The position numbers and the translations under genes are program-made. Below, piece by piece: positions 37,953 to 55,259 of a stretch of 64,000 nt of DNA (positions are counted from its first letter, which is position 1; each line of letters starts with the position of its first letter). Under the pieces are notes generated by a model. The model worked only from the letters and a program-made list of their open reading frames with translations, did no database searches and was not told the origin of the DNA. Source of the DNA: a virus; the IMG/VR virus record IMGVR_UViG_3300021511_000005, positions 45,479 to 109,478 of that record; one strand, written 5' to 3'.

Positions 37953-40900
37953 TTGTCCCATTACCTACGGAATCCCCTGATACCGGGGCAAGGCCCCAAG
38001 CTGGTGATAGGTATGCGGAACCTGCGGAACGATGTCCGCGTGGACACGTCTGCGCTGGCGGAGTTGACCCGGCCGCCGAAGCCCCTGGGCCGGCCGGTCA
38101 TACCCGGCGGGGAGCATGAGTACCGCTCCGCGGATGAGGTCGCCAAGGGTCTGGGACTCAACCACGACCAGGAGCGGGACTTTCTCCAGGCGATGAAGGC
38201 CTGGTTGAGCGAGCCCAACGTGGTGTCCTTCCGCAAGTCGCTGGTCCGCGGTCTGCGGAAGATGGCACCCGGCAACGGTCCGTTGCGTGGGGAGCTGGCG
38301 CGCCGGGCGGTTCAGGTCTGGAAGGCCACAAGGGGGAACCACCCCTCTCGGACCTACGGACGGGAGGGGCAGCCCCAGGACATCATCCGCAAGGCCAAGA
38401 AGGACAAGCCTATCAGCGGTCAGTTGGGGTTGTTTGGGGGGACGCTGCCCAAGGGCGTCACAGTGGGCAAGCCCAAGAAGCCCAAGAAGCAGGTGAAGGC
38501 CGCGGCGGCGAGTGCGGGCTGGCAGGCGATCCCCGCGGGGAAGCACGGCGGCCAGCGCCGGCGGAAGGGCAATAAGTGGGAGTACCGCTACCCCGATGGT
38601 AAGGGAGGCTGGTCAGGCCAGCCCCAGAAGGCTGAGCCCAAACCGGTGAAGGTCCCAGAGCTGAAGCCCGAGGCCCGGAAGATGGCGTACAAGGGCCTGC
38701 GGACCTGGGTCACCGCGAGCGGTCACGGGACGACCAAGGAGGAGCTGGAGCAGCGACTGGCCGCGGCGCTCGAGGCCCAGAAGCAGTCCGAGGTATTTAG
38801 CTTCAAGGTGACGCACGTCAAGCGGGAGAAGGCCCAGAAGCATGACGACGGCCGATCGGTCCCCGCCTATGACGAGTGGGACGTGGAGGTCGAGCACCAG
38901 GCTGCCATTCCCGGTCACCAGTTGACCGGCAAGATCGAAACGGCCACTGGCGTGGTGACGCTGTTCCACGACAAAGCTACCGTTTCCAAGGACGATTACG
39001 CGCGGGCGCAGAGGGGCGTCTGTGACGTCTGCAAGACCAAGCGTCGGCGGAATTCGGTCTTCGTGGTGCAGCGGGAATCCGACGATAAGCACTTGTTGGT
39101 GGGTGGAGAGTGTTCCAAGAAGTTCAAGGGGGCCAATCTGTGGCGGTTGGCCAACGCCATGGAGGAGGTGGACCTGGGCGGCGCCATCGCGGATGCCTTT
39201 GACGAGGGAGAGGGCTTCGGCGGTGGTGGTGGTGGCGGACCCCGGTCCGCGGAGCCCCACGATCTGCTGGGGACAGCGTTGTGGCTCGTCCGTAAAGAGG
39301 GCTATATCGGCGGCGCGGATGCAGATGCCGAGATGACCATGTCCACACCCGATCGGGTCAAGGAGATCCTGGCCGGGGGGAAGGCCGCCCCAACCAAGGA
39401 GGAGCAAGCCGAGATTGATCGGGAAGCCGAGCTGATCAAGAAGGACCTTCCCGAGATTCGGAAATGGATCCAGGAACGCATCCCCACGGACCCGGACGCG
39501 GTCATCACCAAGGACATCGCGTTTGCGGTGACGGTGGACAAGCTCCTGGGCTCCGATTTCATCGAGCCCAAGCACTTCAGCCGCGTGGTGTGGGTTCCAC
39601 ATCGCTACTACAAGATGGTTCAGCGGCGTGAACAGAAGGCGAAGGCCAAGCCCTACGAGGCTCCCCACGCCAAGATGCACAACCTCCCCGGTGAGTGGAC
39701 GATCTTGTCCAACACCGTCAAGGACTCGGACTACGGTTCCTACAACTCGGTGACCGCGATGGACGCGGAGGGACACAAGATCTGGTTCCGCCAGACAGAC
39801 GCCTACGATCTGAAGGAGGGGGACAAGGTCACGCTCCGCGGCAAGCTCAAGGATCAGAAGGACACCATCACGTTCATGTCCCACATGAAGGTGAAGAATC
39901 TGTCCGAGGAGAAGCGGCAGTCTGTGATCGAGGCCGAAGCCGAGGAGTTCCGCAAGGAGCGGGCGCGGCGGATGGCGAGTACGGATCCGAAGGAAATCGT
40001 CCAGGTCAAGATGCACGAGGCCTATGATCCAACACCAGGCGGCACTGAGCGCCAGTCGGCCTTCCGCAAGAAGCTGGTCAAGGCTGTGGTGGCTTTGATG
40101 AAGGAAGGCGCCGAGATCCCCCACGACGCCCTGTATACGACGTGGGATTACTTCGACGGCTACGGCGACGACAAACGACCCGAGAAGGAGAAGCGCGGGG
40201 ACCCGGTAGCCGCCGCGGCTACACGCCAGTATGCCAAGGTCCAGGCCGGCGAGAATCCGGTCAACGCCAAGGAGCTGTTGGAGCTGTTACCCGAGGTGGG
40301 GGCTCGCATGATCCGCAAGAAGTTGGGGGAAGAGGCAGCCAAGTGGATCTTCAAGCGGGCCGGCCTGGCCAAGTCCATGGATGATGATTTGGCGAGGCTG
40401 CGGCCGCGGATGATCCTTCAGCCCACGAGTCACCCTATGGAGCTGGTATGGATGGCCGAAGAGGTCCCGGACAATCTCCACGAGACCTGGAAGCGGATGC
40501 CTCCGGGTTGGCCGGCCGCCGATGAGATCCTCAAGGCGAAGTACTTCAAGCGGACGGGCTCGCCGGGAAACTACGTTTACTACTACAAGCGAGACGATGG
40601 ATCGGTCCAGGCCGTCCGCCAGAAGATGCACCCGGAGGGTGATCCTCGGAGGCGGGGTCCCTACAAGAAGACCAAGAACGCCAAGGGAGAGACCGTTTAC
40701 ACCGGCGGGGAGAAGCCGCCGGGCGCGGGCTGGGAGAAGATCCCGGAGAGTCCACACGGCGGGATGCGGCGGCCGGTGAGCGGCGGCAAGGTCCGTCAGT
40801 GGGAGTTCTGGTATCCGGGTGGGGGGGAGAAGCAGACGGCGATGTTCGGTGGTGGGGGTGCAGCCCCGCCGGCACCGGCGGCACCCGAAGCGGCCAAGGG

Positions 40901-43403
40901 TGGCCCGGTCAAGTGGTCCAAGACGGATGGCGGCTACGAAGCCCGCGGCGGCTCCATCAAGATCCGGAAGCAGGGCAAGAAGTGGGAGATGGTCTACTAC
41001 GGCGAGACCATCCCCATCACCACCAGGAAGCCGAGCTTCGACCACGCGGAGGGTTTGATTCGCGAGCGTGAGGCGCCAAAGCAGACCGACCTGTTCCGTG
41101 CCCTGATGGCCACGGGTCTCTTCGAGCTGCGGAAGGCGGCGGGGCACAAGTACTTGAAGCGGATCCCCACGGGCAAGCCCAAGCCCAAGTATCGCTACAT
41201 CTACCGCCAGCCCAAGGGTGGGCTCACCAGCTCCAGGGACATCCAGGCCGGCGCCAAATTCAAGGTGGAGCACGCCGGCAAGTTGGGTCACTTCGAGGTC
41301 AAGGGCCACGACGCCCACAACGGAATCGTGACGCTGCAGCATGACGAGTCGGGCAGGATCGCCCATATCCGGGAGAAGGACCTACACCGGATGATCACCA
41401 GCCACCACGAGAAGCAGACCAAGAAGGTTACCGAGAAGCCGGACGAGTTCGCGGCAGAGCGGGCGGAGCTGCGCCAACGGCTGGCCACGAGTGAGGCCAA
41501 GCGCCGGCGCGCGGAGAAGAAGGCCCCCAAGAAGCCGGAGGCCAAGGGGCCCGTTCCGGAGCTTCCGCGGGCGAGCCTGGAAGACCTGGGCAAGGGTGGC
41601 TACGACAAGATCGAGGGCTTCAGTGCCGACCCGAAGGATCTGGAGACGCAGGCGTCCCTGATGGGGGGCGATCGGGAGTATGCGATCATTCCCCAGGCCG
41701 GTGGTCACGTTCTGGCGAGCCGGGCCAAGGCCAGCGGGACGGTCAAGGAGGCCAAGGGAGACAAGGCGGAGCTGGTGATGCGGGGCTCCAAGGGCAAGAG
41801 CCTGGACAAGGTGGAGGTGGAGTACGTGGTGATGGAGGCCAAGGACCTGGTGGCCAGTCATGATCCCACAAGCTTCGAGCCCCGGGCGGCCTATCCCGAG
41901 GGCGTCCAGGAGCGGCGTTACGAGGTCCAGGGCTCCGGTGATCAGGGCAAGATCGATCGCATTGCGCGGGAAATGGAGCCGGCGCTGATGGTCAACACCA
42001 ATCCGTCCGCCATCGACGGGTCCCCGATGGTCACCGAGGAGGGGATCGTCCTGGGCGGCAACGGGCGAACCATGGGCCTGCAGCGGGCCTATCAGCTCTA
42101 TCCAGAGAAGGCTCAGGAGATGAAGGACTACCTGGCCAAGCATGCCCGCGGCTTCGGCGTTAGCTCCGCAGAGCTGTCCAAGATGAAGCAGCCGGTCCTG
42201 GTGCGGCGGATGAAGGCGGAGACCAAGGATCTGACCGCGCTGGGTCGGCGGATGAATGAGGCGCTGACCCAAGGCATGGACCCGCGGACCATCGAGGTCG
42301 CGCTGGGTCAGAACTACGTCACGCCCGAGCTGATGGACAGCCTCACCCACAACATGGACCCGGGCCAGTCGATGTCCGAGTTCCTGCGGACCGCCAAGTC
42401 CCGCCCCTTCGTGGAGGCGCTCGAGCGCGCCGGCGTTATCGACCAGTACAACAAGGACGAGTTCGTGGAGAAGGGAAAGGGTGTCCTGAACGAGGACGGC
42501 CGGATGCGGGTGGAGCGAGTTCTGACCGCTCGCATGATCCCGGATGCCAGCGCCTTGTCCCGGATGGGGACCAAGCTCCGGCAGACCATCGCCAAGAGCG
42601 TCCCTTCCCTGATCCAGATGGAGCGCAACGGGTGGAGCGTCCAGGAGGCGCTGGAGCTGGCCGTCAAGGTGGACAACGACATGCGGCTGGAAGGCTTCAG
42701 CGGCGGGACCCGGACGTCCAAGAAGGCAGGCGGCAAGATCAAGATCCCGATGTCCGAGCACCGCGAGTCCTACAGGCAGCAGCAGACCCTGGGGGACAGC
42801 CTTCAGCGCCAGATCGAAGGGAACCCGCTGGCCCAGCTCCTGCTCGAGACGATCCAGGACAAGGCGGACAAGAACATGCCGTCCAAGTGGCGTCAGGTGG
42901 CGCTCGAGGCGGATCGCCAACGGGCGCGCAAGGCCTCCGCCGGTGAAGCTAAGGGTCAGGCCATGCTGGGCGGCGAGGACATCGTGGAGGAGCGGTCCTT
43001 GGAGGACAGCATCCGCGGCGCGTTCGGGCTGAAGAAGCAGGCCCAGCAGGGTGGCCTGTTCGCCATGAGCCTCCCGGAGCCGGATCTGGTGAAGGCCGGC
43101 GCGGAGCTGACCAGCTACCTGATGCACGCGGTCTTGTGGGAGGTCGAGAACCTGATCCGCGGGGCGGTGGTGGACGGGAAGCCCCCGAGCGGCGGGCAGC
43201 TTTTGCCGCGGCTCCAGGCCTTCATCAAGGACCAGGCCGCGGCGGACCAGAAGTTCGCCCAAGCTTTGGGCGCTCATCCCCTGAGTTCGGAGGCCCTGAA
43301 GGGGCTCCTGAAGGCCTCCGCGATGTCACGATCGACAGACCTGGCCAAGAGCATGGCTCGCTCGAGCCTGCATGCCAGCTGGAGGGATTTGTATGCCGGC
43401 TAA
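37953..43403 (+). CDS. 1816-aa polyvalent head-associated protein (Zn-finger/OB module; DdrB-like ParB module)
   Basis: CDVC...RRRN.VFV...VGGEC and C-terminal OB-like strand set; YVVMEAKDLVASHD...QER.Y...DGSPMV...VLGGNGRTMGL...PVLVRR (DdrB-ParB). TTG start with AGGAGAGG RBS. Confidence 0.8.
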   Translation: MSHYLRNPLIPGQGPKLVIGMRNLRNDVRVDTSALAELTRPPKPLGRPVIPGGEHEYRSADEVAKGLGLNHDQERDFLQAMKAWLSEPNVVSFRKSLVRGLRKMAPGNGPLRGELARRAVQVWKATRGNHPSRTYGREGQPQDIIRKAKKDKPISGQLGLFGGTLPKGVTVGKPKKPKKQVKAAAASAGWQAIPAGKHGGQRRRKGNKWEYRYPDGKGGWSGQPQKAEPKPVKVPELKPEARKMAYKGLRTWVTASGHGTTKEELEQRLAAALEAQKQSEVFSFKVTHVKREKAQKHDDGRSVPAYDEWDVEVEHQAAIPGHQLTGKIETATGVVTLFHDKATVSKDDYARAQRGVCDVCKTKRRRNSVFVVQRESDDKHLLVGGECSKKFKGANLWRLANAMEEVDLGGAIADAFDEGEGFGGGGGGGPRSAEPHDLLGTALWLVRKEGYIGGADADAEMTMSTPDRVKEILAGGKAAPTKEEQAEIDREAELIKKDLPEIRKWIQERIPTDPDAVITKDIAFAVTVDKLLGSDFIEPKHFSRVVWVPHRYYKMVQRREQKAKAKPYEAPHAKMHNLPGEWTILSNTVKDSDYGSYNSVTAMDAEGHKIWFRQTDAYDLKEGDKVTLRGKLKDQKDTITFMSHMKVKNLSEEKRQSVIEAEAEEFRKERARRMASTDPKEIVQVKMHEAYDPTPGGTERQSAFRKKLVKAVVALMKEGAEIPHDALYTTWDYFDGYGDDKRPEKEKRGDPVAAAATRQYAKVQAGENPVNAKELLELLPEVGARMIRKKLGEEAAKWIFKRAGLAKSMDDDLARLRPRMILQPTSHPMELVWMAEEVPDNLHETWKRMPPGWPAADEILKAKYFKRTGSPGNYVYYYKRDDGSVQAVRQKMHPEGDPRRRGPYKKTKNAKGETVYTGGEKPPGAGWEKIPESPHGGMRRPVSGGKVRQWEFWYPGGGEKQTAMFGGGGAAPPAPAAPEAAKGGPVKWSKTDGGYEARGGSIKIRKQGKKWEMVYYGETIPITTRKPSFDHAEGLIREREAPKQTDLFRALMATGLFELRKAAGHKYLKRIPTGKPKPKYRYIYRQPKGGLTSSRDIQAGAKFKVEHAGKLGHFEVKGHDAHNGIVTLQHDESGRIAHIREKDLHRMITSHHEKQTKKVTEKPDEFAAERAELRQRLATSEAKRRRAEKKAPKKPEAKGPVPELPRASLEDLGKGGYDKIEGFSADPKDLETQASLMGGDREYAIIPQAGGHVLASRAKASGTVKEAKGDKAELVMRGSKGKSLDKVEVEYVVMEAKDLVASHDPTSFEPRAAYPEGVQERRYEVQGSGDQGKIDRIAREMEPALMVNTNPSAIDGSPMVTEEGIVLGGNGRTMGLQRAYQLYPEKAQEMKDYLAKHARGFGVSSAELSKMKQPVLVRRMKAETKDLTALGRRMNEALTQGMDPRTIEVALGQNYVTPELMDSLTHNMDPGQSMSEFLRTAKSRPFVEALERAGVIDQYNKDEFVEKGKGVLNEDGRMRVERVLTARMIPDASALSRMGTKLRQTIAKSVPSLIQMERNGWSVQEALELAVKVDNDMRLEGFSGGTRTSKKAGGKIKIPMSEHRESYRQQQTLGDSLQRQIEGNPLAQLLLETIQDKADKNMPSKWRQVALEADRQRARKASAGEAKGQAMLGGEDIVEERSLEDSIRGAFGLKKQAQQGGLFAMSLPEPDLVKAGAELTSYLMHAVLWEVENLIRGAVVDGKPPSGGQLLPRLQAFIKDQAAADQKFAQALGAHPLSSEALKGLLKASAMSRSTDLAKSMARSSLHASWRDLYAG

Positions 43404-46400
43404 CGTTGTGACGACTGGGACGGACGAGGCCCGGTGGGCCCGTGCGAAGGCAGCGGCGGCCAAGCAGGGAAAGGCCAAGAACTACGCGCTGGTGATGCAC
43501 ATCTACAAGCAGATGACCAAGGCGAAGGACCCGGATGAAGACGAGGGCGAGGCCCACAAGATGCCCATCCCGGGGATCCCCGCGAGCTGGAACAAGGGGG
43601 AGATTCTGACCGGTGGCGAGGGGGACAAGCGGCCGGACTCCGACTTTGACGCCACGGCGCTGAAGCAGGGGATCAAGGTGGAGTTCGAGCACACCACCAG
43701 CCGAGCGGTGGCGAAGGAGATCGCCAAGGACCACCTGACCGAAGACCCCCAATATTACAAGAAGCTGGCGACCATCGAGAAGGCGTTTCCAGGTCCGGCA
43801 GCTCCACCGGCGGGACATGCGGCCGGCGGCGCTCAGATTGGGGAGGTCCACGACTGGGGCCGGGGCAAGATGCGGAAGGTGGCTCCGGGTAAGTGGGAGC
43901 CGGTGACGGGGCCGCAGTCGGGGGCAAAACAGCAGCCCACAGGGCCAGAGCCAGCCACAGAGGGCACGGCGGACCATCACCGTCAGCAGGCCCTGGTCCA
44001 CACCCAGGCGGCCATGGCGCACGCCGTAGCTCACCAGAGCGCCAAGGAGCAAGAAGAGGCCGCCAAGCATGACGACAACGTCAGGGAGGCCAAGGAAGCC
44101 AGCCAGGAGGCTTACGAGGGCAAGGACGGCCGCCCGGTCGAGCCCCAGAGCCTGGAGGACAAGATCAAGGCTCTGATGGAAGAGCACGGCCAAGATGCGG
44201 TAGCCGCGGCTACCAGCAAGGCGGCCAAGGCCACAGCGGCCGGGCTGGACAAGGCTTTCCAGGCGGAGGCCAAGAAGGTGGCGGGCTCTGAGGGTGTCCA
44301 AGCGGCCGCCGGCGATGCCATCGCCGCGGCGGGCATCAAGAAGGGCGGAGAGGCTCCTAGCAAGTCTCAGGTGGACCAGGCGGTCAAGCACGCAGCCCAG
44401 GACCCCAACGTCAAGAAGGCGGCCCGGGATGGGCTGAAGGCGCTTGAGGGCCCCGGCGCGGACGCCTTGGTGTCGGGACTCGAGGCCGCGGTTCCGCCGG
44501 AGGAAAAGAAGAAGGCGAGCTGGAAGACCAAGGCGGCCGCGGTGGCCAAGATGATGATCCGGCCGTTTGTCTTCGGGTTCGTGGATAACTTCGTGATGTA
44601 TGTCGCGGGTTCCGCGGTGGACGGCGCTGTCCAGGGCGCTGGCTTCAGCTCTGCGGCCACGGCGGGGATCGGCAACGCCATCTCTGACGCGGTGGGCGAG
44701 ACCGCTGGCGGCTTGCTCGAACGGGCTCTACCGGACGAGGAGAAGCTGAAGGCGGAGCTGGGCAAGGACACCTACGAGAAGATGGAGAAGTTCCTGCAGC
44801 CGCTGGGGGTCTTTACCGGCGCGCTGCTGGGGATGATTCCGTTGGCCTTCGGGGTATCCTTCGGTAAATCTATGCGGCGGGAGATGGACATCCAGAAGGC
44901 CAGAGCCAAGGTCGCCGCGGGGCAGATGGGCTTCCAGTTTGGGGCGGCGAAGCCGGCCGGCGGCGGCGAGGGTTCGAGGGGTGGCGAAGTTGTGGGTCAC
45001 ACGGCCAGCGGCAAGGCCATTTACAAGAAGAAGGTCGCGGACCACGAGGCCAAGGCCAAGGAGCATGCCACCGCGGCAGCCAAGGCGACGGACCACGGTG
45101 TTCGGACCAAGCATTTGCACGCGGCCAAGGCTCACCAGGTTGCCGCGTCAGCCCACCGTATTGGGCACAAGGACGCGGACAAGGTGAGCACGGGGGCGGA
45201 AGGTTACAGCCGGCGAGCCCATCGGGCGCGGCCGACAGCGCCCCAGCGTCCTAAGCTTCAGCGGCCCACGTCTGCGGACCGTCCGCCGGGGATGCGAGCG
45301 AGGGCACCGGCAGCCAAGAAGGTGTCACAACCACACGCACAACCGGGCTCCGGCTCGCACCTGCAATTCTCAATGGAGGACAACATGGACATGAACAAGG
45401 CCGAGCTGCGGAAGTCTCTGATCAGTTTCCGCGGTCTGCGGAAGGGGCTGTACAACCGCGTGACCGAGTGGGCCGGTCAATTCATGGGGACGCCGCTGTA
45501 CGTGGAGGCGTTGCGCTGCCTGAAAGAGAAAGCCCAGTGCGACAAGGAGGCGGAGGCCACGCGGGCCAAGCATAAGTCTTGGCGTGAGCTGGAGGAGCTT
45601 CCGCGGAGTCGGCGCCAGGAGATGCGGAAGAAGCAGGACAAGGCCATGGACGTCCACCACCAGCGCAGCAGCAAGATCCTAGCGAAGATGGACGGTTTGG
45701 AGGAGAGGCTTCTGGACCACCAGATCGCGGAGGCGGAGCGGATGGGCAAGGGCGACGTGGACAAGGCCACGCCGATCAACCTTCCGGTGATCAAGTCCAC
45801 GGACGCTGTTGTCGAGGGGTTGGAGGAGCTGTTCAAAGCCGGCCAAGCGGCTGGACCTTTCCGCGGTCCCAAGGGTGGGCTGTGGGCTGATCCCGAGCAC
45901 AAGGTCCCCTATAAGCCGTTGGCGGGCAAGACGTCCAAAGCCGGACACAAGGGGGCCCACAAGGCTCATGTGATTCACCACGAGCGGGAGGCGGTCCGCG
46001 CGCGCAACAAGGGCAACGAGAAGGTGGCTGGCGCGCACCTGGACGCGGCGGACGCCCACAAGGTCGCGATGAAGGCCAAGCCCACTACGCTTGCGCGAGA
46101 GGCTGCCTATTCGGCTACCAAGAAGGCGAGTCACGACAAGGATCGGGCAATCCGGAAGCAGGCCTCGCACGTCAATAGCCACAAGGACCACGGGCATTAT
46201 GCCGCCCGGCTCCGCAGCTCGGCGGAGGAGGCCAAGCAGATGGGGATCGGCTCCCATGTAGACAAGTTGGCCCGGCAGCACGAACAGGCCAGCTCCGCCC
46301 ACAAGCACGCTGCGGAGATGCACGGTAAGGGGCACGAGTCCGCGGATGACCACAGCAAGGTGGCAGCCAAGGCCACGTCCACGGCCTTCGGGGATCCCAC

Positions 46401-47622
46401 GAAGCTCCCCCCATCACCACCGCCGGCGAACAAGGAGTCCGTCTTGGGCGGAGGCCACGCCCATCCAGCAGGGACTAAGGGAGCCGCTGAGCATCACGGC
46501 AAGTCCAAGGACTACCATGGGCGCCAGGCCGCCCACGCGCTGGCTCACGGCTACAAGAAGGACGCCATGATGCACGCGATGGCGTCCAAGCTCCACGGGG
46601 ATGCTCAGGATTTCCACGACAGCAAGCATGACGACGCGGGCTACTGGAGTGAGATGGCAAACAGCTCTACCAGAGCCGCAGAGCATCCCGAGGGCTTCAG
46701 CGACAAGCCGGGGGCCAAGACGACCCGAGAGGAGAAGGCAGCGATGGGCAAGAGCTTGGACCAGACGATGGACGATCTGATGAAGGCGGCCAACGGGGAG
46801 CCTGTGGCCGCATCCATGCGCCCCAAGGACGGCAAGGACGCCCAGACCAGTCTGGTGAAGAAGAAGTCTGGAGAGGAAGAGGAGGAGAACGGTCCCGGGG
46901 ACAGCGAGCACCACAAGGACCAGGCGATGTCCCATCTGGCGGCCGCCCAGGCCCATGCCACGGCCCACCGTTCCGCGAAGCAGCTCGAATCCGCGGACGG
47001 GCATCAGAAGAACGTCGAGGCGGCGCAGCAGGCCAGCGAGGCCGCAGCTCCGCCGGAGGAGGAGAAGAAGCCGGTGAAGAAGCCAAACGCGATCAAGAAG
47101 GGGTCCATGGTGATTCACCTGGACGCCGAAGAGGAGATCCTCAAGGGACTGGGCGACTCCGGGTTATCGGTCCAGGGAGCGGCCCAGGATCCCTACGGCA
47201 AGTACCGGATGGCTGCCATGGGGCGCGGAGATCCCGATGAGAACGTTCGCGCGGCGTCCTTCGAGAAGAGCGGGGTGGCCGGCGGGACGATCTTCGAGGG
47301 CGAGCACAACACTCAGGGTTTCCGCGAGGGTGACTCCCGGGAGGCCCATATGCGCGCCCAGGAGCTGGCCCAGGTAGTGGAGGATGACCCGGCGGGCTTC
47401 GAGGGTCAGGGCGGCCTTCCGAGCTGGTGGAGGGACGCGGGCCACCTGGTCAACGTCCCGGTGGGGGTCCGACCGATGGTCAAGGCGGTGGAGCCCCCGG
47501 TTCAGATCCTGGACGATTCCGACCCTCACACGCGGGCGATGGTCAACACCGATCCGCGCGAGGGGCAGATGGGCGCTCTGATGGCATACAAGGGCGCTGG
47601 CAAAGGCCGCGGCACCCGATAG
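43393..47622 (+). CDS. 1409-aa multi-module head-associated protein (DUF5661-like, His-rich helical repeats, TMEM65-like membrane domain)
   Basis: GGEGDK...GIKVEFEHT...EIAKDHLTEDPQYYKKL (DUF5661-like); PFVFGFVDNFVM...AGIGNAISD...GALLGMIPL; ATG 43393 with GGAGG RBS. Confidence 0.75.
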   Translation: MPANVVTTGTDEARWARAKAAAAKQGKAKNYALVMHIYKQMTKAKDPDEDEGEAHKMPIPGIPASWNKGEILTGGEGDKRPDSDFDATALKQGIKVEFEHTTSRAVAKEIAKDHLTEDPQYYKKLATIEKAFPGPAAPPAGHAAGGAQIGEVHDWGRGKMRKVAPGKWEPVTGPQSGAKQQPTGPEPATEGTADHHRQQALVHTQAAMAHAVAHQSAKEQEEAAKHDDNVREAKEASQEAYEGKDGRPVEPQSLEDKIKALMEEHGQDAVAAATSKAAKATAAGLDKAFQAEAKKVAGSEGVQAAAGDAIAAAGIKKGGEAPSKSQVDQAVKHAAQDPNVKKAARDGLKALEGPGADALVSGLEAAVPPEEKKKASWKTKAAAVAKMMIRPFVFGFVDNFVMYVAGSAVDGAVQGAGFSSAATAGIGNAISDAVGETAGGLLERALPDEEKLKAELGKDTYEKMEKFLQPLGVFTGALLGMIPLAFGVSFGKSMRREMDIQKARAKVAAGQMGFQFGAAKPAGGGEGSRGGEVVGHTASGKAIYKKKVADHEAKAKEHATAAAKATDHGVRTKHLHAAKAHQVAASAHRIGHKDADKVSTGAEGYSRRAHRARPTAPQRPKLQRPTSADRPPGMRARAPAAKKVSQPHAQPGSGSHLQFSMEDNMDMNKAELRKSLISFRGLRKGLYNRVTEWAGQFMGTPLYVEALRCLKEKAQCDKEAEATRAKHKSWRELEELPRSRRQEMRKKQDKAMDVHHQRSSKILAKMDGLEERLLDHQIAEAERMGKGDVDKATPINLPVIKSTDAVVEGLEELFKAGQAAGPFRGPKGGLWADPEHKVPYKPLAGKTSKAGHKGAHKAHVIHHEREAVRARNKGNEKVAGAHLDAADAHKVAMKAKPTTLAREAAYSATKKASHDKDRAIRKQASHVNSHKDHGHYAARLRSSAEEAKQMGIGSHVDKLARQHEQASSAHKHAAEMHGKGHESADDHSKVAAKATSTAFGDPTKLPPSPPPANKESVLGGGHAHPAGTKGAAEHHGKSKDYHGRQAAHALAHGYKKDAMMHAMASKLHGDAQDFHDSKHDDAGYWSEMANSSTRAAEHPEGFSDKPGAKTTREEKAAMGKSLDQTMDDLMKAANGEPVAASMRPKDGKDAQTSLVKKKSGEEEEENGPGDSEHHKDQAMSHLAAAQAHATAHRSAKQLESADGHQKNVEAAQQASEAAAPPEEEKKPVKKPNAIKKGSMVIHLDAEEEILKGLGDSGLSVQGAAQDPYGKYRMAAMGRGDPDENVRAASFEKSGVAGGTIFEGEHNTQGFREGDSREAHMRAQELAQVVEDDPAGFEGQGGLPSWWRDAGHLVNVPVGVRPMVKAVEPPVQILDDSDPHTRAMVNTDPREGQMGALMAYKGAGKGRGTR

Positions 47623-47631
47623 GAGGCCCTG

Positions 47632-49341
47632 ATGGGCGACTTCATGGAGGGCCTGTCCAAGGCGCTGGAAGGCGTCATGGTGGACGCGATGACCAACGCG
47701 ATGGCGAAGGCCAACGCGCGGGACATCGATGGTCGTCAACCGATGACGCTGGAGGGGGCGAAGCCCCAGCCTCTGCCACCTGAGCCGGCCATGGACGAGC
47801 CGACCGGGCTCCTGTTCGATCCCTTCGCCCTGATTGACCAGTTGGGCTACCGGGACCGGCCCAGCGGCCTGACTTATCAGACGCTGCGGGAGATGGCCAA
47901 GCGGGTCCCGACCTATGCGGCCATCGAGCAGATCCGGGTCAACCAAATCTGCGGCTTCGCCCAGCCCCAGGAAGACGAGCGGGATCCGGGCTTCAAGATT
48001 GAGCTGCGAGACTTCAAGCAGACCCCGAGCCGCAAAGACGTCAAGCGCATGAACGAGATAACGGACTGGGTCCAGCAGACTGGGACCGCCTGGGGTCCGA
48101 CGCGCGATGATTTCCGGACCTTCCTTCACAAGCTGTCCCGGGACAGCCTCGAGCTGGATCAGGGGACCTTCGAGGTCGGGCTCAACCGCAGGGGGGTTCC
48201 AGCGGAGTTCGTTTGTCTTGATGGCGCCACCATGCGGCTGGCGGATGTTCCGCCGGGCGCGGAGCATCGACCTGATCCGACGGACATCAAGTACGTACAG
48301 GTCTACGATGAGATCATCATCGGGGAGTTCCCGATCAATCGGCTGTGCTGGGGGATCCGCAACCCGCGGTCTGACATCCGGGCCAACGGCTACGGCTACT
48401 CCGAGCTGGAGATGTTGATCAACGTCATCACGGCGAGCCTGTGGGCCTTCGAGTACAACAAGCGCTTCTTCTCCCAGGGGACGAGCGCCAAGGGCGTGGT
48501 GAACCTGAAGGGCGGCGTCCCCGATGCCAAGATGGATGCCTTCCGCCGCATGTGGCAGATGATGATTGCCGGCGTGGGCAACGCCCACCGGACCCCGATG
48601 GTGTCCGTGGACGAGGTTCAGTGGATCGATCTGCACAAGTCCAACACGGATATGGAGTACTCCGCGTGGATGGATTGGCTGATCAAGATCACATGTGCGG
48701 TCATGTTGATGGATCCGGCGGAGCTGAACTTCAATTACGGCAACACCGGTCAGGCCAGCCAGATGTATCAGGCGCCGGCCGAGCAGAAGATGAAGGCCTC
48801 CAAGGACCGCGGGCTCCGGCCGCTGTTGACCTACTTCGCCAAGTGGATCAACACCCACCTGATCTGGCGGCTGGACCCCAACTACCGCCTGGTCTTCAAG
48901 GGGCTTGACGCCAAGGGCGAGGATGAGAAGGTGGACCTGTCCAAGAAGAAGTCCTCCTACCTGATGACGGTGGACGAGCTGCGCGCGGAAGAGGATTTGG
49001 AGCCACTGCCGGACGAGCTGGGGAACGTCATCCTGGATCCCACCTGGCTCCAGAACAAACAGGCCGCCGAGATGGCCGCCCAGGGCGATATGGGGATGGA
49101 GGGGGAAGAAGACGAGGAAGGGCCGGCGCCACCGCCGGGGGTCCCTGGGGTGGATGACCAGGAGGAAGAGGACGACGGTTCAGACGACTTCGATCAGATC
49201 TTCGGTCAGGCTGACCAGGAAGAGAAGTCCCTGTCCGCAGCGGAGCGGATCCGCGCATCACGTCAGCGGCTTGAGGCGGGCCAGCCGGATGACGATCCAC
49301 TGCAGAAGGCCCGAGTCACCGTCTACGAGATCGACCTGTAG
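47632..49341 (+). CDS. portal protein
   Basis: RDSLELDQ, LDGATMR, RNPRSD...GYGYSELE, YNKRFFSQGT, DMEYSAWMDWLIKITCAV..MDPAELNF, SKDRGLRPLL, MTVDELR; resembles SPO1/Twort-like portals. Confidence 0.92.
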   Translation: MGDFMEGLSKALEGVMVDAMTNAMAKANARDIDGRQPMTLEGAKPQPLPPEPAMDEPTGLLFDPFALIDQLGYRDRPSGLTYQTLREMAKRVPTYAAIEQIRVNQICGFAQPQEDERDPGFKIELRDFKQTPSRKDVKRMNEITDWVQQTGTAWGPTRDDFRTFLHKLSRDSLELDQGTFEVGLNRRGVPAEFVCLDGATMRLADVPPGAEHRPDPTDIKYVQVYDEIIIGEFPINRLCWGIRNPRSDIRANGYGYSELEMLINVITASLWAFEYNKRFFSQGTSAKGVVNLKGGVPDAKMDAFRRMWQMMIAGVGNAHRTPMVSVDEVQWIDLHKSNTDMEYSAWMDWLIKITCAVMLMDPAELNFNYGNTGQASQMYQAPAEQKMKASKDRGLRPLLTYFAKWINTHLIWRLDPNYRLVFKGLDAKGEDEKVDLSKKKSSYLMTVDELRAEEDLEPLPDELGNVILDPTWLQNKQAAEMAAQGDMGMEGEEDEEGPAPPPGVPGVDDQEEEDDGSDDFDQIFGQADQEEKSLSAAERIRASRQRLEAGQPDDDPLQKARVTVYEIDL

Positions 49342-49349
49342 GAGAGATC

Positions 49350-49748
49350 ATGAGCACCGTATATATCCGCCACCGCGTTGTGGTGGTGGCCGCGATGGAC
49401 AGCGATGAGAAGAACCTCCAGCTGAAGCGGGAGGACGAGACCTTGACCACCGTCAACGATGAGCTGGCGGCGGAGGAGTCGGGTCACGCGGTCCTGGGGT
49501 CGGGTGAGACGGGTTTCAGTCTCCCCATGGGCAAGGTGGCCACCGGGGCGCTTCTCTTCATCGAGAGCGATAAGGAGCTGGTCCTCAACTTCGATGGCGG
49601 CGCGGAGGACATTCCGATCAAGCCGACGCAATCGGGGGTCAAGGCGAAGCTGCTGTTGACTAGCAGCTTCACCACGGCACCGAGCCTGGACAACGCCACT
49701 TCGGAGGTTGCTAACGTGACCTTCCTGATTGCCGGCGCCACGGCTTAG
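49350..49748 (+). CDS. hypothetical virion-region protein (beta-rich)
   Basis: AGGAG RBS after portal. Confidence 0.65.
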   Translation: MSTVYIRHRVVVVAAMDSDEKNLQLKREDETLTTVNDELAAEESGHAVLGSGETGFSLPMGKVATGALLFIESDKELVLNFDGGAEDIPIKPTQSGVKAKLLLTSSFTTAPSLDNATSEVANVTFLIAGATA

Positions 49749-49749
49749 G

Positions 49750-49995
49750 ATGAAGATCCGCGTGGAGGCGGAGCCCGGCGAGCTGCAGGAGCGGCTGGGC
49801 GATGCGATCAAGGTCCTGCAGACGCTGTCCTTGGAGAAGGCGCTGCCCGGGATCCCGGATACGCATACCGACCAGGAGCCGCGGCCGCTGGATTACGAGG
49901 TTCTGCAGGCCGCGGTGGTCCGAGCGAACCAGCGCCAGGTCGTCCGCATCAAGCGAGCGCTGGACAAGCGGGTCGCGCAGATCCTGAAGGGGTAG
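49750..49995 (+). CDS. hypothetical protein
   Basis: Contains LEKA and C-terminal ILKG. Confidence 0.55.
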   Translation: MKIRVEAEPGELQERLGDAIKVLQTLSLEKALPGIPDTHTDQEPRPLDYEVLQAAVVRANQRQVVRIKRALDKRVAQILKG

Positions 49996-49998
49996 CTC

Positions 49999-52900
49999 TT
50001 GGCCCTGTTGACACCAGAACAGCTGGAGCAGCTGCGGCGCGCCATTCAAGACGCATCGACCGCCGTGGCAATCTCCACCGTGGGCCACACGGTCACGGAT
50101 GACGAGCTGCAGCGGCTGGTGGACGAGGGCTGGGTGGATCCCGATAAGGTAGACGACGTCGTCATGACGGGTTTCCAGTACGGTAATCTGTTGAGCCACC
50201 TTCCCCGGGCCGCGGACATGGGCCTGGGGGCCTTCATCAAGGAGATCCAGCGGAACCCGATCAAGCTGTCCGCCGCGGAACGCCAGGCCGTCCAGATCGC
50301 GAGGGACCGTGCTGGCCAATACTGCGCGGGCCTGGGCTCGAGGTACAACGAAGAGATGGGCCGGATGGTGGTGGAGGCGGACGCCCAGCTGGCCAAGGTT
50401 ACTCGAGAGTTGATTGCTGACGAGACCGCCAAGAACATCGCCACACGCGGGACGCGGAAGCAGCTGGGTCAAACCCTGGGCAAGTTGACCCGCGACTGGG
50501 CCCGCGACTGGCGCCGAATCGCTAATACTGAGATTCATATGGCCCAGCAGGAGGGCTACCTGGAGGACGTCCGCGAGCGTTACGGGGACGATGAGCTGCT
50601 GGCCAAGATCCCCGAGCCCAACGCTTGCAAGCATTGCAAGCGGCTCTACCTGGATGGCGATGGTCAGCCCATCGTCCGTCCGGCGTCTTGGTGGGCAGCT
50701 CAGGGGGCGAGCAACGCCGGCCGCAAGGCTGCGGACTGGCTCCCCGTCCTGGGAGCGATGCACCCCTGGTGCCAGTGCCGGATGATCCGGGTCCCGGCGG
50801 GCTGGAAGCTGGACGGCGAGTTTCCCGACTGGGACTTGGTTCCCGAGGGCCTGGAGACGGAGAAGTCCCGAGTCGCGGATACTGCGACACGGGACCAGCT
50901 CGAGAAGGCCAAGAAGCCCACTCAGATGGGTTTCGCCTGGGAGCCTGCTCCGAAGTCCCGGAAGGGTGCGGAGCGGCGCAGGCTGCCCGGTGGGGGCTAT
51001 GAGTACCGCTATCAGACTCCGGTCCGCGCGGAGACCCGGAGGAAGGTCCACGGGGCTGAAGACCTGGCCGCGGTCACGTCGATCTTCGTCAACGTGTCCG
51101 GCGGTTCCGAGCGCAAGCGGTTTGTTCCGCAGGAGGAAGGCGAGGGCGTGGACATCGCGTCCAAGAACGTCCACGCCCAGATCACCGCCCACGAAGTCCC
51201 CAAGACCGACAAGGGCCGGTCCCGCTTCGCCAAGCTGGCGAAGGAGCGCGGGATGCGACTGATGATCGACTCCGGCGAGTTCGGCCGTTTCGGTAAGGAG
51301 CTGCGGGAGTACAAGAAGGCGGAGAAGGAGGAGCGGGAGCCGGTGGTTCCGGAGCTGGACTTCAACAAGGTCTTCGACAACTACGAGGCCATGGCCAAGC
51401 TGTTCCCCGCGGGGAAGCTGACCGTGGTGGCGCCGGACCGCATCGCGAACCCGGACAAGACCGCGGAGCTGCGGAAGCAGTACGCCGGGCGAGTCAAGGC
51501 ACTGCAGGCCGGCGGTGCGGAGGTCATCGTTCCAATCCAGGCCCGGTCCGCAGAAGAGATCGGGAAGGACTACATCGCGGCGACCAAGGTCTTCGGGGAG
51601 GACGTGACGCTGGGCTTCCCCACAGCGGCCGCGGTTCTGCCGATGGAGGAGATCCTCCCGGCGATGGCCCAGCTCTACGCTCACGGCAAGTTCCCGCGGA
51701 TCCACTTCCTGGGCGGCGGACGTCCCCGGGAGATGGCGGAGCGGACGGCGCAGCTCGTGGCAGCGGCCTACTTCGCCGGCCAGGGCGTGGCGCCGGAGCG
51801 TGTCCTGGAGCTGACCAAGACCGCGGACCTGGCAGCCCGCGCGCTACGGAACGTCAAGACCGCGGACATGGTCCTGGGGCGCGAGGCGGACGAGGCGCTG
51901 TCCGCGCGGTTCGAGGCATGGGCGGAGGAGCAGGGCCTGGACACCAGCGATCCGGACTTCGACGAGACGGAGGCCTGGCCCGACTTCTACGAGGCTCACC
52001 CGGAGGAGTTCAACCTGGAGCTGGACAGTGAGGATAAGCCGAAGTTGTTCCGCAAGATGGCCGCGGACCTGGTGCAGATGGACAGCCGCGTGGTGGGTTC
52101 CGCGCAGCAGTACGGTCTCCAGCACGACCCGATCACCGGGACGCAGATCAAGGCGGGGAAGAAAATCACGGCGCTGCCCAAGGCGGAGCGCCATCCGGCC
52201 ACGCTGCAGGCCTATTTAGAGGCTCGCGAGCATCAGACCGAGCGCTTCACCCCGCCGGCGATGTCCGCCTGGGAGGCTCTGTGGGGCGATTTTGAGAAGG
52301 TGGAGAAGGTGGAGAAGTCGCGGAAGCTCCACGGTCGGCGGAAGTTCCAGGGCTTCGATATCTCGATCGAGAACCGGGTGGGTTCAGTCCGTCACTGGTA
52401 CGACAAGGCCACGGACACGAAGGGCGAGACCAAGATGGTCAACCCCTACGGCTACATCCGTCTGACTGAGGGAACCGACGGCGACCATGTGGACGTCTTC
52501 CTGGGAGAGGACGAGCAAGCGCCGCGGGTTTACGTTATCCATCAGATGAAGGCCCCGAGCTTCACCGAATACGATGAGGACAAGTGTATGTTGGGGTTTC
52601 CGTCGGCGCGGGCGGCCAAGGCGGCCTACCTTCGCCACTTCGACAGTCCCAAGTTCTTCGGCTCGATGACAGCGCTTCCCGTGGAGGAGTTTCGCAAGAA
52701 GGTCTACAAGATGAAGGGCGAGCTGATCAAGGCGGGAGGGACCTACTCCGGATACGCCTCTGGTTCCCAGCCGCGGTCCACGTCGATCGTAGGAACCATG
52801 GGGCAGCATGATCGGAAGGCTCCACGGACGGCCGGGGCCAATGTTCGCGAGAACCGGGCGGATCACACCGAGGACTGGCCGCCCTATCAGGAGCGGCGGA

Positions 52901-53208
52901 TCCGCAAGGTCCGCAAGGTGGTCTCCGCGGAGGGAGCCGCCGATCCGGTCCTGGCAGGGGTGAGCCTGACCCAGCTCGTGGCCGCCGCAGAGCGGTTCAA
53001 CGTCCGCGGGCTTCAGCAGAGCCACGACTGGGCCAACAAGCCAAAGCTGGACCGTTGTCCGGACCTGAACGAAGCTGTGGCCCGGACGGACGCGGGCAAG
53101 AAGAATCTGGAGACCGTCGAGGAGATAGGACGCCAGCGGCGGAAGACCGCGGCGGGGGCGCGTTTGACGCTGAACCCCAAACTGATCCGAAGGGAGCAGA
53201 AGCGATGA
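49999..53208 (+). CDS. MuF-like head morphogenesis protein fused to TGT/DpdA-like barrel and polyvalent-type inorganic pyrophosphatase (InPase)
   Basis: RDWRRIANTE...ACKHCKRLY...MHPWCQC (MuF-like); IDSGEF...VAPDRIAN...VIVPIQ...IHFLG...DS; ISIEN.VGSVR...PYGYI..TEGTDGDHVDVFLG...YDEDKCMLGF (InPase). Confidence 0.8.
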   Translation: MALLTPEQLEQLRRAIQDASTAVAISTVGHTVTDDELQRLVDEGWVDPDKVDDVVMTGFQYGNLLSHLPRAADMGLGAFIKEIQRNPIKLSAAERQAVQIARDRAGQYCAGLGSRYNEEMGRMVVEADAQLAKVTRELIADETAKNIATRGTRKQLGQTLGKLTRDWARDWRRIANTEIHMAQQEGYLEDVRERYGDDELLAKIPEPNACKHCKRLYLDGDGQPIVRPASWWAAQGASNAGRKAADWLPVLGAMHPWCQCRMIRVPAGWKLDGEFPDWDLVPEGLETEKSRVADTATRDQLEKAKKPTQMGFAWEPAPKSRKGAERRRLPGGGYEYRYQTPVRAETRRKVHGAEDLAAVTSIFVNVSGGSERKRFVPQEEGEGVDIASKNVHAQITAHEVPKTDKGRSRFAKLAKERGMRLMIDSGEFGRFGKELREYKKAEKEEREPVVPELDFNKVFDNYEAMAKLFPAGKLTVVAPDRIANPDKTAELRKQYAGRVKALQAGGAEVIVPIQARSAEEIGKDYIAATKVFGEDVTLGFPTAAAVLPMEEILPAMAQLYAHGKFPRIHFLGGGRPREMAERTAQLVAAAYFAGQGVAPERVLELTKTADLAARALRNVKTADMVLGREADEALSARFEAWAEEQGLDTSDPDFDETEAWPDFYEAHPEEFNLELDSEDKPKLFRKMAADLVQMDSRVVGSAQQYGLQHDPITGTQIKAGKKITALPKAERHPATLQAYLEAREHQTERFTPPAMSAWEALWGDFEKVEKVEKSRKLHGRRKFQGFDISIENRVGSVRHWYDKATDTKGETKMVNPYGYIRLTEGTDGDHVDVFLGEDEQAPRVYVIHQMKAPSFTEYDEDKCMLGFPSARAAKAAYLRHFDSPKFFGSMTALPVEEFRKKVYKMKGELIKAGGTYSGYASGSQPRSTSIVGTMGQHDRKAPRTAGANVRENRADHTEDWPPYQERRIRKVRKVVSAEGAADPVLAGVSLTQLVAAAERFNVRGLQQSHDWANKPKLDRCPDLNEAVARTDAGKKNLETVEEIGRQRRKTAAGARLTLNPKLIRREQKR

Positions 53209-55259
53209 ATTGGGACACCTGGCTGGACAATTTGGTGGGACCGAAGTTGGTCTTGGACCTGGCGAAGGCGAAGCGGAAGGCCGCAGAGGGTCAGATGGGC
53301 CTGTTCGATCAACCGGCGAAGCCCGCCGCGAAGCCAAAGCCCAAGGCTCCAGCGGCCAGCGGCTGGCAGGCGATCCCCGGCGGCAAGAAGGGCGGCCAGC
53401 GGCGGAAGCAAGGCGGCAAGTGGGTCTATCGTTACCCGGACGGCAAGGGTGGCTACAGCTCGAGCCCGCCCAAGCCCAAGGCGAAGCCCAAGGCGAAGCC
53501 CGAGTCCGCGCACCGGGTCCCCACGTCGGGCGAGTTCGACGGGCGGACCAAGCCCTATCCGAGGCACTCAACGCTTGAGATCGGCCGGGGCTTCGATGCC
53601 CAGCACATCAGCGGACCCAAGGCGATGCCTGGGGATCACTGGACACACTCCCTGGCAGCCGATCCCAACGCGACGATGAAGATCTTGTCCCAGCGGTTTG
53701 ATCGGTACGGTCAGTGGAGTTACGTCGTGGAGTACGCCAGTGGCAATACCGGCGTGGTTCCCGAGCACAGCTTGAAGTCCATGAAGGCGAAGCCCCGAGG
53801 CGATAAGTCCGCGTCAGCTCCGAAGCCGAAGCCGTCCAAGGTCAAGCTCGAGCCGGCCAAGCCCGCCGGTCCGGAACGCCGGATCGCAGAGCGGTGGATG
53901 GCGATGAACCAGCGGGAGAAGATGGCCAATCTCCAGGAGCTGGGGCAGCAGAAGGGGATGAGCCTCATCTACGACGGGAAGAACTACATCGTTTCCCAGG
54001 GCAAGGACCACAAGGTCGCGGTGGGCTCCATCGCGGAGGCCAAGGACCTGATCCAGGCCGGCTCCGTCAAGGGGGCCAAGCCGGTCCCTGGGACCACAAG
54101 CTGGACCAAAGCGCCCGGCGGCGAGACCCTGGCCGTCACGGACAAGGCGGGCTTCGCGATTGCGAAGGACAACACCGTGACCAAGGTGGAGGGGAAGAAG
54201 AAGACCACCGTGGGCAAGTTCGAGTCTGAGCCGGAGGCGGTCCACGCGGTCAAGCAGGCCGCTGCGCCAAAGCCCAAGCCCAAGCCGAAATACAAGTTGG
54301 CGCCGGTCGAGCACTACGACGGCTATGGACCCAACGCATGGCGCGGCGCCAAGTCGGGAAAGCTGGGAGCCAAGGAGACCACGGCCGCGGTTCGCAAGGA
54401 GATCAAGCAGGCCCAGGCCGCGGGATGGCTCCCGGAGGGTGTGAAGGTCAGCGTGTCCCACGAGGGCTACGCCGGCGGCTGGTCCATGAATCTGAAGATC
54501 AAGGAGCTACCTCCGGGGATGATGCTCTACGAGGCCGCGGATTATGACGAGTTCGAGCATCGGTATGAGACGCCGTCCGAAGGGGGCAAGGTCCCGGTCA
54601 TGCGTCCGGAGATCGCGGACATGATCAAGAAGATGGAGCAGATTGCGGATCAGTATAACTACGATGACTCCGATTCCATGACCGACTACTTCAATCGCGG
54701 ATTCTACGTCCACAGCGGCGTGGGTCATGAGTTGGACAGTCTCCATCGGACGATGGCGTTGGATCCGGCCAAGGGTGTTGTCTTGGGCTCCGCGGCCCAG
54801 GCTCTCAAGACTCGCGACTTGGGGGACATTCAGGACGCTTTGGTGGGCTATCACGGCTCCGGCATGGACAAGGACGAGCGCGGACCTTGGGGGCTGGGTC
54901 AAGACCTGCGGAAGGTTCTGGCGGACAACTTGGGCGAGCTGGCTGGGCAGCACGGAGGGAAGCTCCAATCCGAGAAGACCCAGGCGCAGTATCGCTCCAA
55001 GGGCTTTCCGCCGAGCAGGATCCGCCAGATCTACGGCTTTGAGACGGAGGCCGGCGCCGAGAAGTTCTACGAGCTGGTGGCGGGCTTAACGGGCGCGGAC
55101 TGGGAGAACCCGGCCCCAAGAGATATGCGGGTGGTGCGGATGGGGCACCAGGTGGACCTGGTCAACATCCCGCTGGATGTCCCCAGCAAGCGGAAGGGCC
55201 ACAAGGCCAAGAAGAAGGTGAAGAAGTCCATGGAGCCGAGGCTTGTCCTCCACGTCTAA
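53205..55259 (+). CDS. 684-aa polyvalent protein with LPD29-like domain
   Basis: ATGA-coupled start (MNWDTW); ETTAAVRKEIK...VKVSVS...YAGGWSM...YNYDDSDSMTDYFNRGFY. Confidence 0.75.
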   Translation: MNWDTWLDNLVGPKLVLDLAKAKRKAAEGQMGLFDQPAKPAAKPKPKAPAASGWQAIPGGKKGGQRRKQGGKWVYRYPDGKGGYSSSPPKPKAKPKAKPESAHRVPTSGEFDGRTKPYPRHSTLEIGRGFDAQHISGPKAMPGDHWTHSLAADPNATMKILSQRFDRYGQWSYVVEYASGNTGVVPEHSLKSMKAKPRGDKSASAPKPKPSKVKLEPAKPAGPERRIAERWMAMNQREKMANLQELGQQKGMSLIYDGKNYIVSQGKDHKVAVGSIAEAKDLIQAGSVKGAKPVPGTTSWTKAPGGETLAVTDKAGFAIAKDNTVTKVEGKKKTTVGKFESEPEAVHAVKQAAAPKPKPKPKYKLAPVEHYDGYGPNAWRGAKSGKLGAKETTAAVRKEIKQAQAAGWLPEGVKVSVSHEGYAGGWSMNLKIKELPPGMMLYEAADYDEFEHRYETPSEGGKVPVMRPEIADMIKKMEQIADQYNYDDSDSMTDYFNRGFYVHSGVGHELDSLHRTMALDPAKGVVLGSAAQALKTRDLGDIQDALVGYHGSGMDKDERGPWGLGQDLRKVLADNLGELAGQHGGKLQSEKTQAQYRSKGFPPSRIRQIYGFETEAGAEKFYELVAGLTGADWENPAPRDMRVVRMGHQVDLVNIPLDVPSKRKGHKAKKKVKKSMEPRLVLHV

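Follow-up and report, generated by a model that had tools for sequence, protein, structure and literature searches.

Conserved mini-module tags follow putative prohead-protease sites in the polyvalent proteins of an uncultured phage

We have analysed a 64,000-nucleotide stretch of DNA (hereafter the window) that forms the right-hand 64 kb of the 109,478-bp IMG/VR virus record IMGVR_UViG_3300021511_000005, which stems from an uncultured phage and whose completeness is estimated at 97%. The window holds a head module in which four large proteins, referred to here as A to D, are encoded among genes for terminase, portal, protease, scaffold and SPO1-like capsid proteins (Table 1), and we have found that these four proteins carry short conserved tags behind a motif that is very probably a cleavage site of the prohead protease. 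In its full form in the window the tag comprises a short glutamine-led peptide (the Q motif), a basic linker rich in Lys, Pro, Ala and Gly, and a hairpin of about 30 residues, all of them downstream of the cut motif. The original prediction for this DNA had proposed a shared post-cut architecture of this kind, and all of the peptides quoted in it, five tag copies among them, are encoded where it placed them; we call these copies a (in protein A), b (in D), c (in C), d (in B) and e (a second copy in A).

Tag a (protein A, residues 145-221) and tag b (protein D, residues 19-85) are homologous across the cut site, the Q motif, the linker and the hairpin, with 61% identity and E 5e-17 within the genome, and the likeness that had been proposed for them extends to the DNA, where mean column identity over the hairpin is about 84%. 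The further hairpin copy that had been placed at 40728-40820, our copy e, is recovered by comparison with tag a independently of any profile (E 0.003). Tag c is a compact version in which the last residues of the Q motif are also the first of the hairpin; it lies outside the seed of the profile described below and is nevertheless matched by it with 17.9 bits (E 1e-6). Tag d had been described as lacking the hairpin, which is correct, but the place is not empty: it is taken by a different mini-module, GEGSRGG-x-VVGHT-x-SGK-x-IY, which is conserved after cut motifs elsewhere and which we refer to as type 4. A possible degenerate hairpin follows the cut motif at the end of DUF5661 in protein B; the hairpin profile gives this copy no score, and the matching ATIEK↓A motif (↓, presumed scissile bond) at the end of DUF5661 in a related phage has a full hairpin behind it.

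Our profile of the hairpin spans 34 positions and was built from 12 seed copies, taken from the window and from five IMG/VR contigs, among which 9 columns are invariant. It matches 201 protein clusters at E ≤ 1e-3, and 25 at E ≤ 1e-10, among 1.84 billion representatives (best E 2.6e-28); a homologue search with an 88-residue tag gives only 5 matches. The matching clusters are mostly 500-3000 residues long with one to five copies per protein, and those that we examined are giant polyvalent phage proteins in which the tags stand beside very different cargo, namely ART-PolyVal, an N6-methylase with an SNF2 helicase (DarB-like), a Strawberry-notch-type helicase, ddrB-ParB, TMEM65, LPD1, FtsK-gamma and unknown modules. 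The tags are portable, as had been supposed, in that they head ART-PolyVal, the N6-methylase with SNF2 helicase, ddrB-ParB, LPD1 and unknown modules alike. All five IMG/VR records that we traced contain polyvalent proteins, and four of the five encode a homologous protease. We also note that among the profile matches many hairpins of the YWYPD type are followed by short A..HH helices.

The hairpin is a real, previously undescribed mini-domain. AlphaFold2 predicts a small three-stranded sheet, with a mean predicted local distance difference test score (pLDDT) of 78 for the 34-residue unit alone; in the 88-residue tag the strands are at residues 49-51, 60-64 and 67-73, and the cut site, Q motif and linker have values near 55, which suggests that these three parts are disordered. 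A search of the tag segments against Pfam at E ≤ 10 returned nothing relevant, a profile search of the PDB sequences gave chance matches only, Foldseek found no match to the hairpin in the PDB, VIA-align run wide gave generic beta-sheets only (best Z 3.1), and the ESM Atlas yielded no usable match. Searches by tblastn with tag a and two tag-bearing proteins found no match among 50,697 GenBank phages and 72,556 PLSDB plasmids, a result to which the low-complexity filter may contribute, and string searches of the literature for the tag motifs found none.

The position of the hairpin is closely coupled to the cut motif, in line with the predicted cuts that had earlier been noted before the tags. 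Across 218 hairpin instances, with positions in the same proteins as controls, a cut motif lies within 12 residues upstream in 119, against 14.2 ± 3.5 for the controls, and the spacing peaks at 5-7 residues. For a further 61 the cut motif lies 13-60 residues upstream, across a flexible spacer, and 16 start within 60 residues of the N-terminus of their protein, 11 of them directly at it, which places 196 of the 218 within 60 residues of either a cut motif or a protein start. Across the family the spacers between cut and hairpin consist to 56% of Pro, Ala, Gly and Lys. That leaves 22 outside both classes, several of them of the kind seen in copy e, where the hairpin stands behind another mini-module (type 2) that itself stands behind a cut; the same order is found in proteins P0006, P0056 and P0123.

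The hairpin can be replaced after the cut by any of three other mini-modules. Type 2, (A/G)GH-KY.KR.PTG...Y.Y.Y, follows a cut motif in 24 of 24 cases, type 3, GP[FY]IGP[RK]GGKWAD..H.IPW, in 19 of 23 and type 4, GEGSRGG..GHT.SGKP.Y, in 6 of 10. Several basic and aromatic motifs that had been noticed behind other cuts (KYFKR...YVYYY, HKYLKR...YRYIY and GPKGGLWAD...VPY) turn out to belong to the first two of these conserved types and to recur after cuts in unrelated proteins. The distance from the cut differs with the type of module, at about 6, 3-4 or 1 residues, and since four unrelated modules share one upstream signal at different short spacings, the cut motif appears to be a common punctuation mark and not a part of one fold. 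The type-4 module of the window (44965-45024) has the form GEGSRGG-x-[IV][IV]GHT-x-SGK-x-[IV]Y, and such modules directly follow cut motifs in P0002, P0053 and P0055.

The cut motif itself, which we searched as [LIVMF]-x-K-[AGS] with expected counts obtained by shuffling, is enriched about ten-fold in the scaffolding protein of the window, occurs 20 times in protein B (7.7 expected) and 4 times in the protease (1.1 expected), and is present close to the N-terminus of the capsid protein. In two related uncultured phages the scaffolds contain 9 and 11 cut motifs (1.2 expected) and the proteases 8 and 4 (about 1 expected), and the N-terminal capsid site is kept, as ELRK↓A and ELNK↓A. Of three large structural open reading frames (ORFs) farther downstream in the related phages, two have no cut motif. 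The cultured Bacillus phage SP-10 (AB605730.1 61533-69882) shows the same pattern, with 8 motifs in the protease against 1.0 expected, 8 in a scaffold-like ORF against 1.4 and the capsid site NLNK↓A. Of 128 sites associated with tags, 88 have Leu at P3; P4 and P5 are often acidic, and Ala is commoner than Gly or Ser at P1'. One motif is common to the tag-bearing proteins, the scaffold, where it is enriched, and the capsid N-terminus, as is characteristic of substrates of an SPO1-like/HK97-type prohead protease, and from these sequences we conclude that it is very probably the site of the prohead protease, with the consensus (D/E)-L-x-K↓A/G/S. SP-10 is a cultured member of the Herelleviridae, and the L-x-K code may be general for SPO1-like capsids.

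Table 1. Head-module genes of the window and the cut motifs, tags and mini-modules encoded in them; positions are those of the window and ↓ marks the presumed scissile bond.
Feature	Position	Strand	Details
Large terminase	35852-37939		
Protein A	37953-43403		1816 amino acids (aa); ddrB-ParB and phrog_2319 module
Putative prohead-protease site IRK↓A, protein A	38385..38396	+	aa 145-148
Q motif QLGLF, tag a	38421..38435	+	pLDDT ~55
Lys/Pro/Ala/Gly-rich basic linker, tag a	38436..38513	+	isoelectric point (pI) of whole tag 10.9
Hairpin copy a	38514..38615	+	GW..IP.G..GG.RRR...W.YRYPDGKGGW; 64.7 bits; pLDDT 84-92
Cut motif ILK↓A, then type-2 mini-module	40527..40586	+	KYFKRTGSPGNYVYYY
Hairpin copy e	40725..40820	+	49.1 bits; in profile seed
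QTDLF, cut motif LRK↓A, type-2 mini-module	41082..41204	+	HKYLKRIPTGKPKPKYRYIY; Q motif upstream of cut
Protein B	43372-47622		1416 aa; DUF5661 and TMEM65
Cut motif IEK↓A ending DUF5661, then possible degenerate hairpin	43774..43905	+	HDWGRGKMRKVAPGKWEPV
Tag d: IQK↓A, QMGFQF, type-4 mini-module	44890..45024	+	GEGSRGGEVVGHTASGKAIY
Cut motif LFK↓A, then type-3 mini-module	45829..45912	+	GPFRGPKGGLWADPEHKVPY
Portal	47632-49341		
Protein C	49999-53208		1069 aa; InPase
Tag c: LEK↓A, QMGFAW overlapping compact hairpin	50899..51012	+	AWEPAP...GGGYEYRY
Protein D	ATG at 53205		684 aa
N-terminal leader of protein D, ending in LAK↓A	53205..53270	+	21 residues; candidate removable targeting leader
Tag b: QMGLF, Lys/Pro/Ala linker, hairpin copy b	53292..53459	+	54.7 bits
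Prohead (head maturation) protease	55570..56376	+	phrog_1028, E 2.5e-44; presumed reader of the cut motif
Scaffolding protein, acidic	56387..57796	+	pI 4.4; 17 cut motifs, 1.7 expected; Q motif absent
SPO1-like major capsid protein	57838-59271		39% identical to Bacillus Herelleviridae capsid proteins
Capsid cut motif LRK↓A (DLRK↓ALAAG)	57922..57933	+	aa 29-32, near N-terminus

Judged by their domain content, the tag-bearing proteins are polyvalent proteins. The ddrB-ParB domain (PF18763, 76.5 bits) and the InPase domain (PF18823, 121.9 bits) of the window proteins are among the signature domains of this class, as set out in passages of the study that described it (Iyer, Burroughs, Anand, de Souza and Aravind 2017; PMC5512222), and proteins A (ddrB-ParB and the phrog_2319 module) and B (DUF5661 and TMEM65) carry two unrelated effector-type domains each. 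Like the described examples, these are giant multi-effector proteins of phage head modules, and ART-PolyVal, LPD1 and the pair of N6-methylase and SNF2 helicase, found in tag-bearing relatives, add to the resemblance. Packaging and delivery of the window proteins are supported by the position of their genes, which lie between those for terminase, portal and protease. Passages of the same study propose that polyvalent proteins are packaged, released by proteolysis and delivered, with release mainly through autoproteolysis by zincin-like peptidase domains (PMC5512222); the proteins that we describe differ in that they appear to use the code of the prohead protease, and the boundary cassette, the Q motif and the hairpin do not figure in those passages. 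The tags belong to no Pfam family.

In the plus-strand ORFs of at least 80 aa in the 109-kb genome, the strict form of the Q motif, Q[LIVM]x[LM]F, is confined to tags a and b, with one occurrence in each. In the family, counted over the best 150 of the 201 profile matches, Q[LIVMF]x[LMF]F is matched 56 times, and in 39 of these a cut motif stands at most 20 residues upstream, typically in contexts such as ...LLK↓AEQLGLFG or ...L.K↓ARKP.PGQ[LM]GLFG; QLGLF, QLSLF, QMGLF, QLALF, QLDLF, QLELF, QFDLF and other variants occur, with the third position variable. A Q motif stands within 30 residues upstream of the hairpin in 15 of 218 cases, against 1.7 expected, and one is nearby for only about 10% of hairpins across the family, most hairpins following the cut directly. 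We found no Q motif in the scaffold, capsid protein, protease, portal or terminase of the window, and it is therefore ruled out as a general docking site for the protease. A Q-like motif, QTAMF (40833-40847), follows hairpin copy e, and close to the C-terminus of protein A (43047-43106) QQGGLF is followed by LVK↓AGAE...YLMHA, an arrangement that recurs at the C-terminal domain of P0123, where QLGLF is followed by ...GGAELGRYLMHA.

We find, then, cassettes of constant architecture that recur across types of cargo and are tied to the protease code. The explanation that we favour, to which we assign a probability of about one half, is that the tags are boundary cassettes of capsid-packaged polyvalent proteins, that is, labels which each fragment bears after cleavage, with the linker and hairpin binding nucleic acid and the Q motif serving for docking. 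The polyproteins would enter the procapsid and then be cut at L-x-K sites, as the scaffold would be, by the phage's own prohead protease, leaving a tag at the new N-terminus of each cargo fragment. Because the tags lie downstream of the cut they would be retained on the product, and because they recur with each fragment we suggest that they act after processing and not as a signal for recruitment into the procapsid. The tags have pI values of 9.5-10.9 and the hairpins, at 30 residues, a net charge that averages +4.3, in a head module whose scaffold has a pI of 4.4, and given this basicity the linker and mini-domain probably bind nucleic acid, whether inside the filled head or within the host; binding of this kind would spread the fragments along the packaged DNA and let them exit together with it. 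The Q motif would be a docking peptide, for which the best match among candidate partners is the beta sliding clamp of the host.

A small basic, aromatic, three-stranded sheet is also what the N-terminal DNA-binding domain of Tn916-type integrases (PF02920) consists of, and that domain binds in the major groove. In a search of 185,579 species genomes with the pattern YRYPDG, the sole match was a Tn916-type integrase in a metagenome-assembled Clostridia genome (L010 9956-10150), which shares the 16-residue GRYEYRYPDGKGGL with the second and third strands of the hairpin. The match is circular, since the search pattern was derived from the hairpin, and PF02920 as a Pfam model gives no score on any tag at E ≤ 10. 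The likeness is possibly a lead, by analogy with an arm-type DNA-binding sheet, to how the hairpin works, and does not amount to family membership; as an analogy it fits nucleic-acid binding by the hairpin. Encapsulin cargo-loading peptides offer a second comparison, as these too are short, sit on flexible Pro/Ala/Gly linkers and address diverse cargo to the interior of a shell with the HK97 fold; they are usually C-terminal, have another consensus and are uncoupled from protease sites.

Several observations weigh against the boundary-cassette explanation. The cargo proteins as a whole are also basic (pI 8.4-9.7), and as basicity is common to them it says little about a specific role of the tag. 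No relative of the hairpin was detected among known DNA-binding domains in Pfam, the PDB sequences, Foldseek or VIA-align, and the tags occur in no cultured relative among the phages searched. In some cassettes the Q motif stands just before the cut, as in EQLALFK↓AAGHKY, in the window's QTDLF...LRK↓AAGHKY and in P0004, P0006 and P0056, where cleavage would leave it at a C-terminus, and an N-terminal position of the tag is consequently no strict rule. Two of the window's Q motifs, QMGFAW in tag c and QMGFQF in tag d, have Phe at the fourth position and so fall outside the Q-motif consensus. Lastly, the narrow spacing of 5-7 residues could mean that the cut motif is in part a structural element of the module.

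It is possible, if doubtful, that the Q motif is a true clamp-binding motif, such that ejected fragments dock on the host DnaN at sites of replication or repair or compete with its clients there, with the hairpin and linker adding affinity for DNA. The consensus for clamp binding is QL[SD]LF, peptides of the form QLxLF have the highest affinity, and the general rule is Q-phi-x-[LM]-[FL] or Q-phi-x-[LM]-x-[FL] (PMC11139829). The family form Q-[LM]-x-[LM]-F, with its free third position, equals the QLxLF consensus; QLGLF of tag a fits the rule and is the clamp-binding peptide of E. coli Pol II (PMC11139829), and QMGLF of tag b fits if Met is accepted as phi. The motif also lies where clamp motifs tend to lie, in predicted disorder (pLDDT about 55, against 84-92 for the hairpin), and cleavage would bring it to a fragment end or close to one, whichever side of the cut it stands on; in phage Mu, terminal clamp-binding motifs of MuC are functional, the partner being the bacterial sliding clamp (PMC12867686). 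One Q motif per fragment would suit a role after cleavage, and as we found no phage-encoded clamp in the genome, any clamp partner would be that of the host. Against this, the argument is one of sequence match, and a match of five residues can be convergent; the motif accompanies only the small fraction of hairpins given above, copies c and d (two of the four window copies) deviate from known clamp motifs at the fourth position, no other protein of the phage has a Q motif, and no loaded clamp would be present on incoming double-stranded phage DNA. In the literature searched we found no report of clamp motifs in virion-packaged polyproteins or beside protease sites. About as doubtful is a fuller version, in which virion-delivered fragments with genuine clamp motifs at protease-made termini would, upon injection, load methylase-helicases, ParB-like nucleases, ADP-ribosyltransferases and other enzymes directly onto the host clamp, or would saturate its client cleft, while the basic three-stranded mini-domain supplied affinity for DNA.

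We consider it unlikely that the tags are signals for capsid targeting or retention, with the Q motif or the mini-modules binding scaffold, portal or inner capsid and so loading the cargo. Short N-terminal signals do exist on proteins that travel in the head to the host: the N-terminal 30 residues of P1 DarB suffice for packaging, as does the capsid targeting sequence of T4 known from IPIII (PMC9024508), and the T4 signal, like our tags, is tied to a site of the prohead protease, although the T4 code is I/L-x-E and the code here L-x-K↓A/G/S. Methylase-helicase cargo like that of DarB stands behind a tag in P0003, P0043, P0058 and P0014, the tags are limited to cargo proteins and absent from scaffold and capsid protein, and protein D, which has a single cargo, begins with a leader, a cut and a tag in that order. 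However, the T4 targeting sequence precedes the cut and is lost through it, whereas the tags lie downstream, would be kept and are repeated within one polypeptide in which a single loading signal would suffice. We found no similarity between the tags and the N-terminal signal of P1 DarB. A T4-type signal stands at the N-terminus, extends to a protease site and is removed there; the one element so placed is the 21-residue leader of protein D, and leaders of the form ...LhhDLhK↓A resembling it are present at the N-termini of P0043, P0095, P0113 and P0117; these short hydrophobic leaders before the first cut would be the better candidates for T4-like removable targeting. The proposal in the original prediction that the tags are what recruits unrelated domains into the virion is weakened by the same observations, namely that they lie downstream of the cut and that there are several per polyprotein.

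Still less probable, in our view, is that the mini-modules serve only to present the substrate, as rigid beta units that expose the scissile bond to the protease and have no role once it has been cut. Short fixed distances between cut and module, and four unrelated module types at the same position, would be explained in this way, but the scaffold has its many cut motifs with neither modules nor Q motifs, 61 hairpins are separated from the cut by flexible linkers, and the 11 that stand at the N-terminus of their own protein need no cut. That the resemblance is a chance product of low-complexity basic linkers can hardly be entertained, since, even if K, P, A and G abound in the region and the low-complexity filter of BLAST may account for some negative results, the invariant seed columns, the number and significance of the profile matches, the confidently predicted fold and the far from random position relative to cut motifs all speak for a conserved unit.

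As judged from the sequences, the conserved post-cut tags, the four types of mini-module and the peptide resembling a clamp motif appear to be new, none of them being present in Pfam, in the literature searched or among the GenBank phages and plasmids. Polyvalent proteins are thought to be a major route by which phages deliver ready-made counter-defence enzymes, and the boundary-cassette explanation gives them a testable grammar, conserved in about 200 protein clusters, of cut code, docking peptide, linker and one of four mini-modules, from which mature cargo fragments could be predicted from sequence. The tags would also provide compact transferable elements with which foreign proteins could be loaded or addressed in phage capsids, and, if the Q motif does bind the sliding clamp, injected proteins would have a new route to the host replisome. 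The counts reported here likewise supply sequence evidence for an L-x-K↓A/G/S code in the proteases of SPO1-like capsids.

We note several further features of the head module. Protein B contains a TMEM65-like membrane domain (44563-44850, aa 398-493) within what is otherwise a head polyprotein; behind this domain come FGK↓S, a further cut motif and the Q motif of tag d, and the order of TMEM65, cut and Q motif is shared by P0014 and P0145. Histidine-rich helical repeats of the form A..H...A..AH run throughout protein B (43372-47622). The N-terminal region of protein C (50600-50830) contains an NACxxC...HPWCQC motif and in this resembles the MuF/SPP1 gp7 head-morphogenesis proteins, of which CxxC...HPxCxC is typical; neither Pfam nor PHROGs scores the region, and a MuF identity is unsupported. 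In the protease, the C-terminal 80 or so residues (aa 178-257; 56101-56340) resemble a stretch of the neighbouring scaffold in the related phages (G001:78116-78346 and G002:10433-10639) with 36-43% identity, which suggests, from sequence likeness, that protease and scaffold share a capsid-binding tail.

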